From Sedimentisphaerales bacterium (GTDB lineage Bacteria; Planctomycetota; Phycisphaerae; Sedimentisphaerales; SM23-30), in NCBI GenBank assembly GCA_963666285.1, contig OY762711.1: 64,000 nt of DNA. The stretch is one strand, 5' to 3'. Positions within the stretch are counted from its first letter, which is position 1. Every line of letters starts with the position of its first letter. Below are positions 9,286 through 19,005 of this stretch, in pieces. The position numbers were made by a program, and so were the translations under genes. Below the pieces are notes generated by a model. The model ran no database searches. It was not told the origin of the DNA and saw only the letters and a list, made by a program, of their open reading frames with translations.

Positions 9286-10620
9286 CTGAACTTTTGCAAA
9301 ATTAGGGTAAAGCTAATTGTACTTTAATACGTTTAAAACTTGTTCCGTTGGATTCGATTTGATCAACCACCCAAGCGATTGTATTGCTGAGAGTTTCTCG
9401 CATAACTGCCATACAAGATTGTCCTATGGTCGTCAGGCGTTCTCGTGCCCATTCACACACACGGTTCTGCTGCATTTGAGTCAAAAGTACGCTATACGCC
9501 AGAAACACCATGTACATGTGTCTTGTCTGACCCAGGCCGCTTCTAAGCTGACAGTCGCCCATGCCCAAATACTGCTTGCCGTCTCGATGAAAGCACTCTG
9601 TGCCTTGCCAGCGGCAGCGATAGACCTTCAGGATACGAATCGCTTCCCAGTTGCATCGATTGCAAACCAGAATCTTTTTAGGTTCAATATCATTCTTTTT
9701 ATGCCAGATAATCAGGATACGTACTTTGTGGTCTACACCAGGAATCCTGATACTTTTAGTAAAGTAATATTGGCGATGCTTGCCAATAGTTATGAGTTTT
9801 TTGATTTCAGGGTCAATAGATTTGGCTACTTCTTCAGCCTTTATTACTTTGCCCTGAAATATAGTCTTACGATTTGTTTTCAAATCACCAACATAATTAC
9901 GTTCATACTGGTTTATATGGTTAAGGTTGTCGCTATGGGTAAACCAGCTATCGAAGGTAAAGTCACCGGGAATATCGTTAGCTACAGTCCAGTCAACCAG
10001 ATTGCGGAAAAGGATATTATGATCCTGAAATTCAATGCCCCGTTCCAGACAATCTTCTTTTTTGACAAATCTGTAAAACTCCAAAGGATAATGTTTCCCG
10101 GAATTACAGACATAATTGGCTATCAGGTAATCATGGGCTATTTTATTACGTTGATCTGCATGATCCCAGAAATATCCTACATCCTCAATATGTTTACCAC
10201 TATGGTCTATCAGAACATTATCAAGGGCAATAACCCCAGAATCGCTATATCTGGTTTTAGGGTCTTTCTGCAGCCACTCCAGTCTGGCAGTGTTAAGCGA
10301 TTCTTCGTCCCATTCAACATCGGTGAGAAACCGGTTGAGACAGGATTGATCAGAGGCAAATGCAAATTCCCTGTTGATGGCAGAGACGTTTTTCTTGCGG
10401 GCAATGATAAGACCGGTGATATACTCAGCAAAATGACGACGTTCAGGCTCATTTTGAAAATGATCGCCAAATTCATCGACAGCTTGCTGGACTACTGTAG
10501 GGTATTGTACTATAGCTGGCATACCAAAATCCTTTCTGGGTTTTCGGAGTGCTCTGCTATCAAATTTTATCGGTCTATACCACATTTTAACGTTAATTTT
10601 TTAATTTTGCAAAAGTTCAG
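9286..10620 (-). mobile_element. Complete IS701-family insertion sequence
   Basis: Perfect TIR ctgaacttttgcaaaatta (9286-9304) / taattttgcaaaagttcag (10602-10620); direct flanks ttctaa at 9280-9285 and 10621-10626. Confidence 0.88.
9302..10522 (-). CDS. IS701-family DDE transposase
   Basis: HFAEYITGLI, DQSCLNRFL, VIALDNVLIDH, FTFDSWF, YRCRWQGTECFHRDGKQYLGMGDCQLR. Confidence 0.88.
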   Translation of the reverse strand: MPAIVQYPTVVQQAVDEFGDHFQNEPERRHFAEYITGLIIARKKNVSAINREFAFASDQSCLNRFLTDVEWDEESLNTARLEWLQKDPKTRYSDSGVIALDNVLIDHSGKHIEDVGYFWDHADQRNKIAHDYLIANYVCNSGKHYPLEFYRFVKKEDCLERGIEFQDHNILFRNLVDWTVANDIPGDFTFDSWFTHSDNLNHINQYERNYVGDLKTNRKTIFQGKVIKAEEVAKSIDPEIKKLITIGKHRQYYFTKSIRIPGVDHKVRILIIWHKKNDIEPKKILVCNRCNWEAIRILKVYRCRWQGTECFHRDGKQYLGMGDCQLRSGLGQTRHMYMVFLAYSVLLTQMQQNRVCEWARERLTTIGQSCMAVMRETLSNTIAWVVDQIESNGTSFKRIKVQLALP

Positions 10621-12663: not shown

Positions 12664-12848
12664 AAGATGGTATTTAAGGTGTCCGGCGTCTACCAGAAAA
12701 TAATTTAGATGAGGTGATATTATTCTACGCAAACCCTACTGATATGCAATAGTGTGTTTCATGTTCTAGTGAATCATAACCTTATAATATTTATACTATT
12801 GCAGGAGTTGTTGGTAGTTATTTGAATAAAGGAATTGTAGTAAAATGA
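12664..12848 (+). pseudogene. Highly decayed Rhs/toxin-tip remnant
   Basis: NNLDEVILF resembles DNFLDEVLL at 15277; short frame PYNIYTIAGVVGSYLNKGIVVK* ends in an ATGA overlap with the ankyrin gene. Confidence 0.35.
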
Positions 12849-13960
12849 ATATAATTAAAGTAATAGCAGTTTTAATTTGTTTTCATTATTCTTGTTGGAG
12901 TCAAGCAATTCAATTAGAAGATGTTGATTCTTTGTTTGAAAATATTGGTAATAAGGTTGCGATTTCAACTAAGTTTCCTATTAAAGAGGAACTTAAAAGG
13001 CTCAGTGAGTATTATCCAGACCTTGTTGTTCAAGAGAAAGTAATGAATAATGTTTCTGGATATTTGTGTTATTTAGGAATTATTTACTCTCTTGATAAGC
13101 ATGGAATCAATGGGGGAACTTTACGTGAATGCAACAAAGATTTATGGCCGAATCTTGGCTTTGAAATAAGTGATGAATTTTCTCTCTTTGGTGACTATGA
13201 TATCGAATTGTCCATGGGGATTAAATCAAAAGCTATTGTGCCAAGTTTCAAAAATAACTGTGGCAATAATACTGCCGAATATACTCGCATGTTAAACGCT
13301 TATCTTATTGATGTTTACAAAGGAAGATCATGTATTGACTTTTGGAATAAATATATATCCAGGAATCATAATAGCATCGATGATTGGAGGGTTGATGGTT
13401 TACCTGAGTATGATATATCTCTTTGTTATGCTTGTTTTATCGGAAAAATAGATTTAGTAGAAAAAATTCTAAATAAGGGAGCTAAACCTGAAGATTACAT
13501 GCTAAACCGTTATGATTATATTCCTTTTTCAATTCAAATAGCCGCCCAAAAAGGATTTGATGAAATATTGGCTTTACTTCTTAATAAAACACCATCGAAT
13601 GTTCTGGAAAACCATAAAATAAAATATATTGATTTTACATACTTGAATAATAGGATATCCTTTTCTCCAGTCATTTCCGCAGCTGCAAATGGAAACTTAA
13701 GCTGTCTTGAAGTTTTAAGTGATTTTGGTTTTTACTTAAATATAAAAAATACTTTTGGAAATACAGCACTACATCGTGCTGTTAGAATGAATCGGAAAGA
13801 GGTTGTGAAATATTTAATAGATAATGATCTAGATCCACTTGAAAAAAATATGAAAGGTGAAACATCAATAGATATTGCTAAAAAATATAATGTCGATGGT
13901 GAAATACTTGAGATGTTGATTGGTTCGAGAGTGCAGTTGAAGGAGTCCACATCCGATTAG
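12845..13960 (+). CDS. Exported ankyrin-repeat protein, candidate immunity protein
   Basis: Signal peptide; SIQIAAQKG, PVISAAANGN, GNTALHRAV, GETSIDIA; AT-rich. Confidence 0.8.
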   Translation: MNIIKVIAVLICFHYSCWSQAIQLEDVDSLFENIGNKVAISTKFPIKEELKRLSEYYPDLVVQEKVMNNVSGYLCYLGIIYSLDKHGINGGTLRECNKDLWPNLGFEISDEFSLFGDYDIELSMGIKSKAIVPSFKNNCGNNTAEYTRMLNAYLIDVYKGRSCIDFWNKYISRNHNSIDDWRVDGLPEYDISLCYACFIGKIDLVEKILNKGAKPEDYMLNRYDYIPFSIQIAAQKGFDEILALLLNKTPSNVLENHKIKYIDFTYLNNRISFSPVISAAANGNLSCLEVLSDFGFYLNIKNTFGNTALHRAVRMNRKEVVKYLIDNDLDPLEKNMKGETSIDIAKKYNVDGEILEMLIGSRVQLKESTSD

Positions 13961-13981
13961 GCGTAAATTTGGCTATCATAA

Positions 13982-14329
13982 GAGACCAAAACCCGTTATT
14001 ATTATAATGGCCGGCAGCTGCTGCTTGAGGAAGTTAAGGATTCAGCGGATGTTGTATCAGGCCGAGAATATGTTTCCGGTAATGACTTGGATGATGCTTG
14101 TACAGAGGCAAAGGCATATGCGGCATCTAGTCAATGTTTATCTTACGTTGCGGAAAAATATCGTAGTTCGCGCCCTATAAATGCCCGTTTATCATCGGAG
14201 GAGCAGGGAGTATACGATGAATTAATGCGTGCTTCTATGGATGATTTTCAAGCCGCCGTTAACAATAAACAGAAATGTGAATTATATCAATTAAATCCTG
14301 ATTTGGTGGAGCCTTTAAAATCGAGGTAA
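13982..14329 (+). pseudogene. Rhs core fragment fused in frame to a toxin-tip fragment
   Basis: Start-less frame ETKTRYYYNGRQLLLEE...REYVSGNDLD then DACTEAKAYAASSQCL... Confidence 0.65.
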
Positions 14330-14334
14330 ACATA

Positions 14335-15198
14335 ATGTCATATTTTAAATTGCTAATAACAATATTGTTTTGTATTGAAGTATTTTTTTTAGAGGGGTGT
14401 AGTGTATCCAATTTTTACAGTAAAGCTGAATTTGAAATTGTATTAGCTAAATATCATAGTTTAATTGACAATGAAATTAGTGTAAGTAAAATTAGTGGAA
14501 ATTGGGATAGCGACTTTATTATATTAAATAATAAAAAAAATGTGGATTCACCTTCAACGAGAGGGATTTTCAGCATAGAAATTATTCCTGATATAGATGT
14601 TTTTTGCAATGGGTGTAAAAATGCTTGTGTTAATAATATTAAACTATGTATATGGGAAAATGGAGATGTATTCTGGAGTAACCGAACAAATACATTTTAC
14701 ACTAATATTGGCAAAGAAGTAGTTAGTCTGTGGCATGAATGTTTAGATAAGAAAAAACTCTTTTCTGGTAAATTTTCATCAATACAGTATTATGGGGATA
14801 AAATCAACAATAACTTTCTTCACTTTTATAGAATTTCCATACGTAATAGTAATGAATTTGTATCTATTGGTTTGGTTTGTGAATGGTGGAATGATACATT
14901 TTTTACCGGCAATATGAAGACTCATAAAACTGAATTTGTTTACGATAATGATATAAAATGGAATAATATTATATCATTTTTGAATTCCATTAATTTGAAT
15001 GAGCAAGATGTTTATGTTTTAGATAATGATAAAGATTTTTGGATAAAAAATGTTGCATTTTATAATTTATTGCCATATCCAATGTTTTGGATAAATCCAA
15101 AATTAAATAGTGGATATTGTAAATGGAATGAGGCTGTTGAGCGAAAATGGCTTGATAATCAATTGAGTTTTGAGCTAAGCAGGCAATTTCCGCAATAG
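14335..15198 (+). CDS. Lipoprotein, candidate immunity protein (paralog of 16506-17390)
   Basis: Lipobox-like LEGC; shares CIWENGDVFW, R(I/V)SIR, WW, VYVL, NLLPYP with 16506; starts 5 nt after the toxin-tip stop. Confidence 0.7.
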   Translation: MSYFKLLITILFCIEVFFLEGCSVSNFYSKAEFEIVLAKYHSLIDNEISVSKISGNWDSDFIILNNKKNVDSPSTRGIFSIEIIPDIDVFCNGCKNACVNNIKLCIWENGDVFWSNRTNTFYTNIGKEVVSLWHECLDKKKLFSGKFSSIQYYGDKINNNFLHFYRISIRNSNEFVSIGLVCEWWNDTFFTGNMKTHKTEFVYDNDIKWNNIISFLNSINLNEQDVYVLDNDKDFWIKNVAFYNLLPYPMFWINPKLNSGYCKWNEAVERKWLDNQLSFELSRQFPQ

Positions 15199-15254
15199 GC
15201 AAATAAGTATCCGACTGTAAATAATTGCATTTTAATTGATTTAGATCCAGAAAT

Positions 15255-16405
15255 TTGGTTAAAAATAATGTTTACGATAACTTTCTGGATGAGGTTCTGT
15301 TACATAGGGCTACTGACGGAACTGAAGTCAGGTATTACCTGCACGATCATTTGAACAGTCCGGCAGCGTTAGCTGAATGTACAGAAGAGCATGAACAACA
15401 CCATGTAAGTGATGAAGGAAGATATATGAGAGCGCCAAGCGAAGCTAATGTAGTCAAGCCGGCCAATCCGGCATGGGTAAGGGCTAGCCACCCGCCCATT
15501 ACAGCACCGGGCGTGCAGAGAGGTAACGAACTGTACGAAGCCCCGGGAAAGGAGTTTGTCAGCCACAACGCAAGTGAAGGTGTTGAGCCCCGAAATTATT
15601 CCTTATCGCATCCGGGCCAGGGTTTTCATATGCCTGAAGCCAATATCGATATATGCGAAATACGGCGAGCATCTATCGACGAGCCGGGGTCTGAGTCCGT
15701 AGCGGGCAAACGAACTGACTGCATTGGAACTTGGGAGAACCGAAGTGCTCCGAAAGGAAGCGGCCAAGGAGCTGAAACCGTGACGCGGCCGTATGGCATT
15801 TTGGTAGTCGGACTGACTCATAGTAGAGGAGTAAACAGGGTAATGCCTGTTGAGTTTCGAAGTTTGAGGCACTCGAAGGGGTCAGCATTAATGTGTAAAG
15901 GCGAAACAGGATATTGGCCAGGCACTGAACTGGAAGAAACCATGAACGTTCCACAGCGTCTTCTATCGGAGACTTCTACAAGGCACATTACTTTGCCTTA
16001 TGTAGCCGTCAAAGTGAGCATTAATGAAGAGCCGGATGAGGGAAATCTTCAAGTCCGGTTCAGTGAGGGGCATGCGTTTCCTTGCACAAAATATAATGAA
16101 ACTCAGAATTTGTTAAATTAATGAAAGGAGGCGACATGCCTACTCGACACTGTTTAGGCCAAGACCCGAACCCAAGAAAAGGAAATAATAGGGAAAGAGC
16201 GTATTCAGACGCATGTTCTGAGGCAGGAGCATTCGATGCGAGTTATCAATGCCTCATGAAAAATGCTGTACTTGCAAGAGAGCTAGGAATTAGCGATGAG
16301 GTAATAGAACGTTTGGAAGCTCAAGCAAATCTAGATTCTAAACAAAGTAGTAGGCAAGCAACAAGATGTAGGCAGATGGGAGAAAGATATGGTTATAACT
16401 GGTGA
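15255..16405 (+). pseudogene. Orphan Rhs fragment plus HExxH toxin tip, split by a group II intron (exons 15255-15429 and 16149-16405)
   Basis: DNFLDEVLL...YYLHDHLNSPAAL (Rhs core); CTEEHEQHH; joined exons read GRYM-N-CLGQD...DACSEAGAFDASYQCL in frame. Confidence 0.7.
15430..16148 (+). mobile_element. ORF-less group II intron, 719 nt
   Basis: 5' GAGCG (canonical GUGYG); DV gagccggatgagggaaatcttcaagtccggttc 16029-16061; DVI gagggg...cctActcgac with bulged A16142 and AC end; candidate EBS1 tcatat 15626-15631 complementary to exon end atatga 15424-15429. Confidence 0.88.
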
Positions 16406-16505
16406 GAATTGTACTTGATTTTTCTACTCATGTTTTTGGATATGGAAATATGAAAACTTGAACATTAAACATAAGTACGGCAAGCTAAGGAATTAATAAT
16501 AAATT

Positions 16506-17390
16506 ATGAAATATATCATTGTGGCTACATTTAGTATTATTTTATTATCTGGTTGCAACAAGCCAGAAACAATGCAATTGTTATCAGAGTATCAGAGTGC
16601 CTTTTCTCCAGATTATTGTTCAGCAATTAAGTTAGACTTGACATATTTTGATAACCAATCGCTAATTCAAATGGCTTCAGAGTCAAAAATACCAAATATT
16701 AAATATTATGATTTTTTTGCGTTGGAAATATTGGACAAACATAACTCAAAATCCCCAAATAAAATACCTAATTTAGACAAGTTACTCTTACCAGACACGA
16801 GGGTACCTTCTAATTTAGACAAGTTGCTCTTACCTGACACAAGGGCGATTATCGAGATTGCAGTTAACTGTAGTAACCATTGTTACAATCATTGCAGTTG
16901 CAATGGTTCTGTCGGTTGGCCAAGAGTTTGCATATGGGAGAATGGGGATGTATTTTGGAATCTCAATCGTTATGTTTTTTATTTTAAATTAGAAAGAGAA
17001 ATAGTTAATAAATTTCACAAAATAATTCAATCATCGAATTTATTTGACAAATGCAATAAGGATTTATTTGTTTATTGCGATGAGAAATTTCCTGACTCAT
17101 TTTACAATAGAGTTTCAATAAGGTTGGATGATAAATTTATATCTTTGTGTTCCTTCTCTTCTTGGTGGAAAAACGGTTTCTTTTCTCCGAATCTCTATAA
17201 AGATTGTTATTACATAAGCAAGCCAGAAGTTGATATCTTATATGATTTGGGAGAAATTTTAGCTGACATAGATTTGTCAAAATATGAGGTTTATGTATTA
17301 TATTTAGATAATCAAAAAAGTTTTTGGTGGGATAAAATAGGTTCGCGAAACTTATTACCATACCCAACTATTACGTGTCTTACTCAATAA
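16506..17390 (+). CDS. Lipoprotein, candidate immunity protein
   Basis: Lipobox LLSGC; paralog of 14335; internal 42-bp tandem duplication. Confidence 0.72.
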   Translation: MKYIIVATFSIILLSGCNKPETMQLLSEYQSAFSPDYCSAIKLDLTYFDNQSLIQMASESKIPNIKYYDFFALEILDKHNSKSPNKIPNLDKLLLPDTRVPSNLDKLLLPDTRAIIEIAVNCSNHCYNHCSCNGSVGWPRVCIWENGDVFWNLNRYVFYFKLEREIVNKFHKIIQSSNLFDKCNKDLFVYCDEKFPDSFYNRVSIRLDDKFISLCSFSSWWKNGFFSPNLYKDCYYISKPEVDILYDLGEILADIDLSKYEVYVLYLDNQKSFWWDKIGSRNLLPYPTITCLTQ

Positions 17391-17880: not shown

Positions 17881-19005
17881 TTAAAATGGAATTTCATTAT
17901 CTACTATTGGTTCATCGTAGCGTTTGATTGAATCAAGTCGTGTTTGCAAATTAGCAATAAAGATTTTTTGTTTTTCAAGTGAAGAAGTTTTTAATAGGTG
18001 TAGAAAAGATTTGATTTGGTTAACCGGAAACTTTGAGTTTCTTTCAAAATAATATCTACCATCTACAAAGCATCTTACAATATGTGGGGAATAAGGGACG
18101 TATTCTTCTAAGATCATTTTTCGGTACGCATCTTCGAGTTTTTTTAATATTTGAGGTATATCATCATAGTATTTTGCTCCTTTTTCAATTCTTGATATAC
18201 AACATAATAGAGAATCAGCGAAAAATCTATAAGATAATTTCTCATTTTCATTGAAATCAATTTCTAAAAACATATTGCTATTAATACTCTTTTCAATGTC
18301 GAAAAAACTTTGTATTCTTGTGGCGTCATCTTTGTTACACATTTGTAGGAGTAATTTATTATATACAAAGGATTCTATATTGTTTTCAATAATAATTTGT
18401 TGGAATAATTTACCAATGAAATATATTTCAGTAGTGAAATCGTATAGAGCTGAATCAAATTCGTTTGGAGGTTCGCACCATGAATTCACACTTGTACTTT
18501 TATAATAATCTGTTATTTCTGTGATTTTTTTACTAAAGCCAAAATCAATTATTTTAACATTTCCATCAAATGTGATCATGATATTTGATCTGCGTATATC
18601 GCGGTGTAGAATTTTATTTTTTTCCAGGTGACTAAAACCGTCTATAACTTGAATGAAAATTTCATTAATTCTTTCTGGATTTTCACTAAGATAAGCTTCG
18701 AAGTCATCGCCGTCAATATGTTCCATAAGAATAAATCCAGCACACTGATCTGGATATAAAAAATAATTGAATACTCTAACAATATTAGTATGGTAAATCT
18801 GATGTAGTAATTTAATTTCTTGTCTAAATTTATTAAAAAGTAGTATTTTTTCTTCTTCGTTACTTGGTTGAAACTTTTTGCATACAAATCTTTCTTCAAT
18901 TAATGGATCATAAAGGAGGACTGTTTTACCGCATGCACCTTGCCCTAACTCTTTTATAAGTTCGAAGTCTTTAGCTCGTGTAAACTTGATTATATCATTT
19001 TCCAT
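17881..19005 (-). CDS. Stand-alone Hanks-type Ser/Thr protein kinase
   Basis: LGQGACGKT, VCKKF, HRDIRRSNI, IIDFG; AT-rich; C-terminus DNEIPF. Confidence 0.85.
   Translation of the reverse strand: MENDIIKFTRAKDFELIKELGQGACGKTVLLYDPLIEERFVCKKFQPSNEEEKILLFNKFRQEIKLLHQIYHTNIVRVFNYFLYPDQCAGFILMEHIDGDDFEAYLSENPERINEIFIQVIDGFSHLEKNKILHRDIRRSNIMITFDGNVKIIDFGFSKKITEITDYYKSTSVNSWCEPPNEFDSALYDFTTEIYFIGKLFQQIIIENNIESFVYNKLLLQMCNKDDATRIQSFFDIEKSINSNMFLEIDFNENEKLSYRFFADSLLCCISRIEKGAKYYDDIPQILKKLEDAYRKMILEEYVPYSPHIVRCFVDGRYYFERNSKFPVNQIKSFLHLLKTSSLEKQKIFIANLQTRLDSIKRYDEPIVDNEIPF

Follow-up and report, generated by a model that had tools for sequence, protein, structure and literature searches.

Group II introns at initiation and termination codons have been described in several settings. 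The clade that settles there was traced to Michel et al. 2007, as summarized in the available portion of PMC12584367, which also states that the process by which introns colonize start and stop codons is unknown. Its members, IIB1/CL1 introns such as Avi.groEL and EcKTE56.groEL, have inserted within or beside the start and stop codons of host genes (PMC12584367), as has the intron reported here, found in a 64,000-nt stretch of a Sedimentisphaerales bacterium genome (GenBank GCA_963666285.1, contig OY762711.1; "the window"). As far as that portion goes, the two differ in several ways. The Avi.groEL-type introns carry a 5'-subterminal insertion of 300-700 nt, whereas the window intron is 719 nt in all; they encode a CL1 RT with an endonuclease, whereas the helper RT of the window lineage has 450 aa and no endonuclease; they occupy housekeeping genes, whereas the window lineage is found in many unrelated genes; and no replacement Shine-Dalgarno (SD) sequence or AUG in domain VI (DVI) is mentioned for them. 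A large 5'-subterminal insertion is lacking in the window intron, on which the Rfam domain I model begins at intron base 34.

The TeI3/TeI4 introns of Thermosynechococcus elongatus include ORF-less copies that spread under a trans-acting "driver" RT, much as we propose below, and the insertion site of family F3 lies between a pair of start codons in an RT gene (PMC2882425, in the part available). Unlike the window lineage, these are IIB1 introns with an endonuclease-bearing RT and mostly intergenic or IS targets, and the downstream start is provided by the target rather than by the intron. Classes IIE and IIF share with our intron a small IIB-like ribozyme, a 5-nt loop in domain V (DV), and an RT-X protein without an endonuclease; EBS2 has been proposed to serve homing rather than splicing in them, and the accessible text on them mentions no start-codon targeting, unlike what we observe (PMC3753933, PMC3552965). 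The ORF-less intron C.te.I1 of Clostridium tetani has annotated start codons of downstream genes inside D5/6 and leaves 75-95% of transcripts unspliced, but the available part of its description concerns a single alternatively splicing locus, with no mobility and no start-codon targeting (PMC3919590). In their accessible portions, PMC4424553 gives three known target specificities and does not use the wording "start codon," PMC6003770 reports EBS-IBS pairing as a route by which a spliced intron can target its own mRNA, and PMC3851717 shows ribosomes binding to an intron rather than reading through it. We found no endonuclease-less lineage in the literature consulted that inserts after an ATG and supplies a restart, although Michel et al. 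2007 and Simon et al. 2008 may hold related remarks.

Identity and boundaries of the intron

The features of the locus are collected in Table 1. Two Rfam covariance models match above their gathering scores, RF02005 (group-II-D1D4-6) at 15463-15699 with 112.2 bits and RF00029 (DV-DVI) at 16027-16148 with 52.3 bits, and they confirm the ORF-less group II intron that a first-pass annotation had proposed. DV and DVI fold as expected (z scores of -4.9 and -5.0), and the Rfam match and the fold agree with the bulged A (16142) and the AC end (16148, an AY-type end) read earlier. The 5-nt DV loop is a feature shared by IIE and IIF. Between the end of domain III (15885) and DV (16029), domain IV (DIV) measures ~140 nt, close to the ~130 nt first estimated, and codes for no RT, as had been said. 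Excision joins the exons in frame, with 63 open codons before the junction and 85 after it, again as foreseen.

Table 1. Features of the intron and its surroundings (window coordinates)
Feature	Position	Strand	Basis or remark
Exon 1: Rhs remnant of 63 codons without the core; pre-core residues lead into HExxH	15240..15429	+	genome comparison
IBS2, Shine-Dalgarno-like AAGGAA	15415..15420	+	exact complement of EBS2
IBS1, holds ATG (15426-28) plus A	15424..15429	+	internal Met codon here, mimic of a start
Stop-free frame from exon ATG, 231 codons	15426..16121	+	ends at TAA 16119-21, overlapping in-frame ATG at 16121
ORF-less group II intron, 719 nt	15430..16148	+	Rfam matches; one of 8 near-identical genomic copies
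5' end GAGCG, U2A variant of GUGYG	15430..15434	+	common to the lineage
EBS2, anti-SD-like UUCCUU	15599..15604	+	exact complement of 15415-20
EBS1, anti-start-codon UCAUAU	15626..15631	+	exact complement of last six exon bases, 15424-29
EBS3 (U)	15692..15692	+	pairs with first base of exon 2
Domain III	15813..15885	+	stem ends set by inspection
Domain IV, short, no RT	15886..16026	+	5' part resembles start of relative's RT gene
Domain V, AGC triad, 5-nt terminal loop	16029..16061	+	RF00029, fold
Domain VI, long stem burying SD and AUG, bulged A 16142	16065..16145	+	fold
Intron-borne Shine-Dalgarno AAGGAGG	16125..16131	+	sequence of DVI
AUG within the intron at -13, reading into exon 2 in frame	16136..16138	+	sequence of DVI
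Exon 2: 85-codon orphan tip	16149..16405	+	no family match
Lipoprotein-like gene in immunity position, no known family	16506..17390	+	31% identical to 14335-15198

The proposed ends at 15430 and 16148 were fixed independently of that reading by three lines of evidence: the eight genomic copies have differing flanks, relatives that start with GTGCG begin at the identical column, and EBS3 covaries with its partner. The EBS3-IBS3 pair is Watson-Crick in 34 of 34 parsed family members (36 examined), with three pair types. Both of the candidate pairings, EBS1/IBS1 and EBS2/IBS2, hold up as exact complements. Among the matches listed, 39 of 105 loci could be parsed for a permutation comparison, in which cognate EBS1 pairing scored 4.41 against 3.23 for permuted partners and cognate EBS2 pairing was likewise better than permuted (0 of 300 permutations in each case); these loci are kin, so that the counts overstate independence, and the EBS1 scoring used one fixed register, in which shifted members, the window intron among them, were mis-scored.

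The canonical 5' GUGYG is absent, and GAGCG stands in its place, as noticed at the outset. All 11 full copies of the genome have GAGCG, RT-bearing ones included. For 118 metagenome relatives among the matches listed, the 5' ends are GTGCG in 86, GTGTG in 21, GAGCG in 10, and GAGTG in 1. Since GAGCG recurs in this way, it is a natural variant of the lineage and not a lesion.

Copies, helper RT, and mobility

A genome search for other copies and for an RT-bearing parent, the check that had been suggested, returned eight copies of the 719-nt intron and two RT-bearing relatives. Three of the eight are identical, one has a single difference, and four have two; the window copy belongs to the identical trio and differs from each of the remaining five by at most 2 bases, and its insertion is therefore recent. 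The RT-bearing relatives are 1929 nt long and 85% identical to the intron over the 5' 426 nt, and we judge the dependence on an RT in trans, which the first reading had considered, to be probably right. The genome thus records the recent spread of a non-autonomous intron to eight sites, with a helper RT present. It also holds one degenerate 648-nt copy and two fragments. That ORF-less sister (G000:C1:1613560-1614207) carries a 71-nt deletion, and its EBS1 match is poor; its host frame has stops at nt 12 and 90, and no gene follows it. A third intron-type RT (G000:C1:3875242-3875864) is unrelated and frameshifted.

The helper RT has 450 aa, with a YADD motif in one copy and YADN in the other. 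Its domain matches are to RVT_1 and, weakly, to GIIM (maturase) only, with no endonuclease family. The named references compared were of classes D, F-g3, and g1 (names from PMC3552965), and the identity to them is 30-32%. The identity to two unclassified plasmid RTs is 48% and 40%. The helper RT may be of class E, which is a tentative guess.

The 13 copies and fragments all point the same way with respect to the GC-skew arms, a count made without control for gene-strand bias; this agrees with the insertion into the lagging-strand template that PMC8919778, in the part available, describes for introns of this kind. In two pairs of copies (G000:C1:3631583/3634538 and 5267085/5274238), the partners are separated by 3 kb and 7 kb, which hints at local hops. 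Relatives of the intron are present in 12 of 60 related genomes, and viral contigs gave no intron match. In contigs from three runs of one study, possibly the source sample, the depth over the intron is 5- to 8-fold higher, and no joint across the intron was found in them.

Insertion at translation starts

All eight copies are preceded by ATGA and followed by A, so that the insertion falls one base past an ATG. Six of the eight lie in codon 2 of long genes, compared with 559 of 6060 genomic TATGA^A sites (a null of 9%; P = 1.4e-5), where a site was counted as start-like if the 30 codons before it held an in-frame stop and the frame after it stayed open for 100 codons or more. AAGG stands upstream in seven of the eight, an SD pattern chosen after the sites had been seen. 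Five of the six long target genes have Pfam matches: a prepilin-type leader, GH16/DUF3472, an esterase, an HlyD-type protein, and a transglutaminase-like protein. The seventh copy is within a short repeat-like stretch, and the eighth, that of the window, follows an internal Met codon preceded by AAGG. The window site was probably taken because it mimics an SD plus ATGA, and the position of this copy in a broken toxin-like gene looks accidental.

The same preference is seen in metagenome relatives, which were selected by a pattern drawn from the intron alone and comprise at least 118 loci, 117 of them with enough flank. Among the matches listed, 69 of 117 are preceded by ATGA, ATGG, ATGC, or GTGA, and of 104 distinct exon ends, 63 have RTG at -4. 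Start-targeting exons carry an SD-like motif ahead of the site in 51 of 68 cases and other targets in 4 of 46, and CC is found in the EBS2 loop of 12 of 26 start-targeting versus 1 of 13 other parsed loci, again among the matches listed. These relatives are kin, so the counts overstate independence. Four relatives with other targets (L134, L145, L158, and L172; exon ends AATC and AACG) have a frame open for ~500 nt from the first intron base, and L145 has a 1821-nt frame leading from the ribozyme into the RT.

A putative start signal in domain VI

DVI carries an SD and an AUG of its own. Because the insertion comes after ATG-N, this AUG is in frame with exon 2. In the seven other copies, the ORFs that begin at the intron AUG are 382, 515, 274, 518, 336, 156, and 8 aa long, and at six sites in three other genomes they are 485, 452, 351, 256, 467, and 237 aa long. 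With the start signal supplied by the intron, the genes that are hit can probably still be translated.

We compared DVI in 35 distinct members with both ends, 23 of them start-targeting. AUG and SD are both present in 23 of 23 start-targeting members versus 4 of 12 others; of the remaining eight others, five lack the AUG and three have AUG or GUG without an SD. The SD flag of the five AUG-less members is a false match on the DVI 5' strand. At one locus (L259; G485:C94, ~15800-15990, minus strand), nothing of the intron is left but its final ~22 bases, and the intron SD and AUG form the apparent start of a 351-codon leader-bearing gene. The remnant lies behind what we take, from the peptide, to be the tail of an IS200-type transposase. 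In the fold, SD and AUG are fully paired (unpaired probability ≤0.01), the AUG belongs to the branch-site stem, and only 4 nt separate the SD from the AUG. Removal of the DVI 5' strand in silico opened the AUG region only partly.

An open frame through the ribozyme

Within the intron, the frame of the host ATG runs for 229 codons without a stop, while the other two frames contain 14 and 20 stops; it ends with TAA at nt 690 of the intron, 3 nt before the buried SD. Only 1 of 20,000 shuffles was as open as the window frame, a figure that is overstated because the family inherits a stop-poor frame and that we set aside. Across the family, this frame has stops at 76 of 4280 codons, versus 232 of 4345 and 301 of 4331 in the other frames. 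Column shuffles gave 92.6 ± 4.3 stops where 76 were seen, and the other frames also fall below their own shuffles. No codon periodicity was found in the family's stop-poor frame. No stop occurs over nt 104-455 in 26 of 49 members, and reverse strands are also long-open (mean of 281 nt, versus 300 forward and 201 shuffled). A pair test on present-day sequences gave 19 of 71 for the open frame, and a weak simulation put the chance of mere frame retention, between the window copy and each relative, at 0.16-0.31. pN/pS is 0.47-0.70 in the open frame versus 0.81-2.25 in shifted frames, as calculated from three related sequences only.

The host frame usually closes early. Among the matches listed, it stops by nt 156 in all 56 start-targeting metagenome loci of at least 300 nt, and in 42 of these at nt 87. 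In the window lineage, the stops that the two sister types have at nt 12 and 90 are absent, and the host frame runs to nt 690. L150 and L246, the two ORF-less relatives that share the short DVI (79% and 81% identical), close the host frame at nt 87. A long frame then opens in them with an ATG at nt 104, a position at which 35 of 49 members have ATG and 6 have GTG. In both relatives one frame is open up to a TGA at the column of the window TAA, across a 3-nt indel in DIV, and the other two frames of L246 hold 22 and 14 stops. The frame ends at the same column, with TAA or TGA, in three of three intact members of the sub-lineage, and it stays open over the DIV-DVI region, where other frames hold 5-11 stops. 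In five other ORF-less members, which have a different DVI, it closes between nt 428 and 557. The RT-bearing relative L053, which starts with GAGTG, has independently kept the host-ATG frame open for 153 codons, to nt 459, near the RT start. In a public protein collection, the through-intron frame (15426-16118) appears as a 231-aa protein, in a cluster of seven unnamed members. Part of the openness is evidently inherited; inheritance does not seem to explain the run of the host frame to nt 690.

The Rhs remnant split by the intron

The locus resembles Rhs orphan toxin-immunity modules in its short Rhs-like run-up, variable tip, downstream lipoprotein-like gene, and two tandem modules, except that the core and its DxxG end are missing. 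Over 38 aa, exon 1 is 44.7% identical to the stretch just ahead of the core in one of the genome's other Rhs proteins (L273), and it lacks the ~108 residues that come next in L273, including the DxxG end of the core. None of the seven TIGR03696 matches in the genome falls at the window locus, and no Rhs body lies upstream of exon 1. Exon 2 has no Pfam match, no atlas match above 0.75, and no counterpart in 60 related genomes; homologues were not found in longer proteins, and at near length only exon 2 itself was recovered. The exons were searched separately, which lowers the sensitivity for tip homologues. A Cys/His-repeat protein that came up as a relative of exon 2 is spurious and has no HExxH.

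The first-pass annotation had read this locus as an HExxH toxin tip whose third zinc ligand is the E of a downstream motif. HExxH and a later CxEA motif are indeed in the sequence, and a zinc site made of HExxH and a downstream residue is possible; because exon 2 has no credible relative, the toxin with a third ligand is a reading of motifs only.

A probable retroelement specialized on translation starts, and rival explanations

The main point of the element is the combination of start-codon targeting, SD and AUG in DVI, and the open frame. The explanation that we favor, and hold to be quite probable on sequence grounds, is an endonuclease-less, non-autonomous group II retroelement that is specialized on translation starts and lets the host gene restart from DVI. 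The helper RT would mobilize the ORF-less intron in trans at the replication fork, EBS1 would read the start codon and EBS2 the SD, and such loops would offer thousands of candidate sites. The host gene would survive either through splicing or, if unspliced, through a restart at the DVI AUG that adds four residues to the N terminus. The window copy would then have hit a look-alike, an AAGG motif and an internal Met codon in an already broken Rhs remnant, and the separation of HExxH from what follows it would on that account be incidental. Targeting of its own mRNA by a spliced intron could also matter for this lineage, given the anti-SD and anti-AUG loops.

As an addition to this explanation, the stop-free frame may take ribosomes through the ribozyme up to the stop 3 nt before the buried SD, so that DVI would open and restart would be coupled; we give this coupling roughly an even chance. 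A ribosome relay that unwinds DVI is likewise a probable role for the open frame, the chances again standing near the balance. The fuller idea of a "translation-transparent" intron, in which SD/AUG mimicry finds the targets and a relay melts the branch-site stem to restart the host gene, is more tentative and falls slightly on the doubtful side. Under it, relatives would relay in steps (stop at nt 87, SD, restart at nt 104) and the window intron in a single frame; translation and splicing would be competitors for DVI, so that host expression would depend little on splicing, and the 3' end of an intron may remain as the permanent start of a gene.

An ordinary splicing-dependent parasite, whose host genes are expressed only after splicing and whose DVI signals and open frame are by-products of the stem and of descent, is in our estimate unlikely. 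Since SD and AUG are both fully paired and the AUG sits in the branch-site stem, structure alone could conserve them, and 7 of 12 relatives that do not target starts keep AUG or GUG; the loss of the SD, however, follows target class, and the gene of G485 keeps its 351-codon frame with only the last ~22 intron nt as its start. Descent would account for a stop-poor frame that lacks codon periodicity and is accompanied by long-open reverse strands, and the pair test and the retention chances given above leave room for it. It accounts less well for a frame that is open over DIV-DVI, keeps its phase across the 3-nt indel, and ends at the same column in three of three members, or for a lineage without the host-frame stop that all 56 listed start-targeting loci have by nt 156.

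We consider the role first suggested for this intron, a splicing gate that brings together the zinc ligands of an HExxH Rhs toxin, highly improbable. The exons are in frame, Rhs-like residues precede HExxH, a lipoprotein-like gene follows, and the product of an unspliced restart would be without HExxH. Toxin gating was nevertheless rejected as the main reading, given the ~108 missing core residues, the lack of a TIGR03696 match and of an upstream Rhs body, and a metallopeptidase tip that no homologue backs; and an intron identical to copies in unrelated genes, recently inserted into an already broken module, is no evolved gate. Even less probable is an inert fossil with a damaged 5' end, the outcome that had been named as the alternative. 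The departure of GAGCG from GUGYG and the degenerate 648-nt sister would suit it, but eight copies that differ by 0-2 bases at matched targets do not, nor does the presence of GAGCG in the two RT-bearing relatives and in 10 of 118 listed relatives.

Implications

The avoidance of genes by bacterial group II introns is commonly put down to poor splicing and lowered host expression (PMC6003770, in the part available). A lineage with loops that read the SD and the start codon, and with a restart of its own, would be a concrete and testable answer to how start codons are colonized. Whereas IIB1/CL1 introns at start and stop codons are known, an endonuclease-less start-targeting lineage with its own restart appears to be a new variant, and its start-codon targeting would be a second independent origin. 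As a small natural RNA, the intron could serve as a non-polar insertion tool. It is also a warning for annotation, in that gene prediction turns the frame across the intron into a 231-aa protein entry.

Neighboring genes

The lipoprotein-like gene downstream of exon 2 was found in none of 24 family genomes, and no homologue of the tip of the upstream module was recovered. A promoter scan gave nothing above chance (31 versus 23.7 ± 5.0). The lipoprotein-like gene contains a 14-codon direct duplication at ~16760-16850. Two tandem modules occupy window positions 13964-17390, each with an Rhs remnant and a lipoprotein-like or leader-bearing gene, the two latter genes being 31% identical; an ankyrin-repeat gene (12845-13960) precedes the modules. 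Farther out, as judged from translations, the flanks hold a transposase-like ORF (9302-10585) and a Ser/Thr-kinase-like ORF (17881-19005, minus strand).
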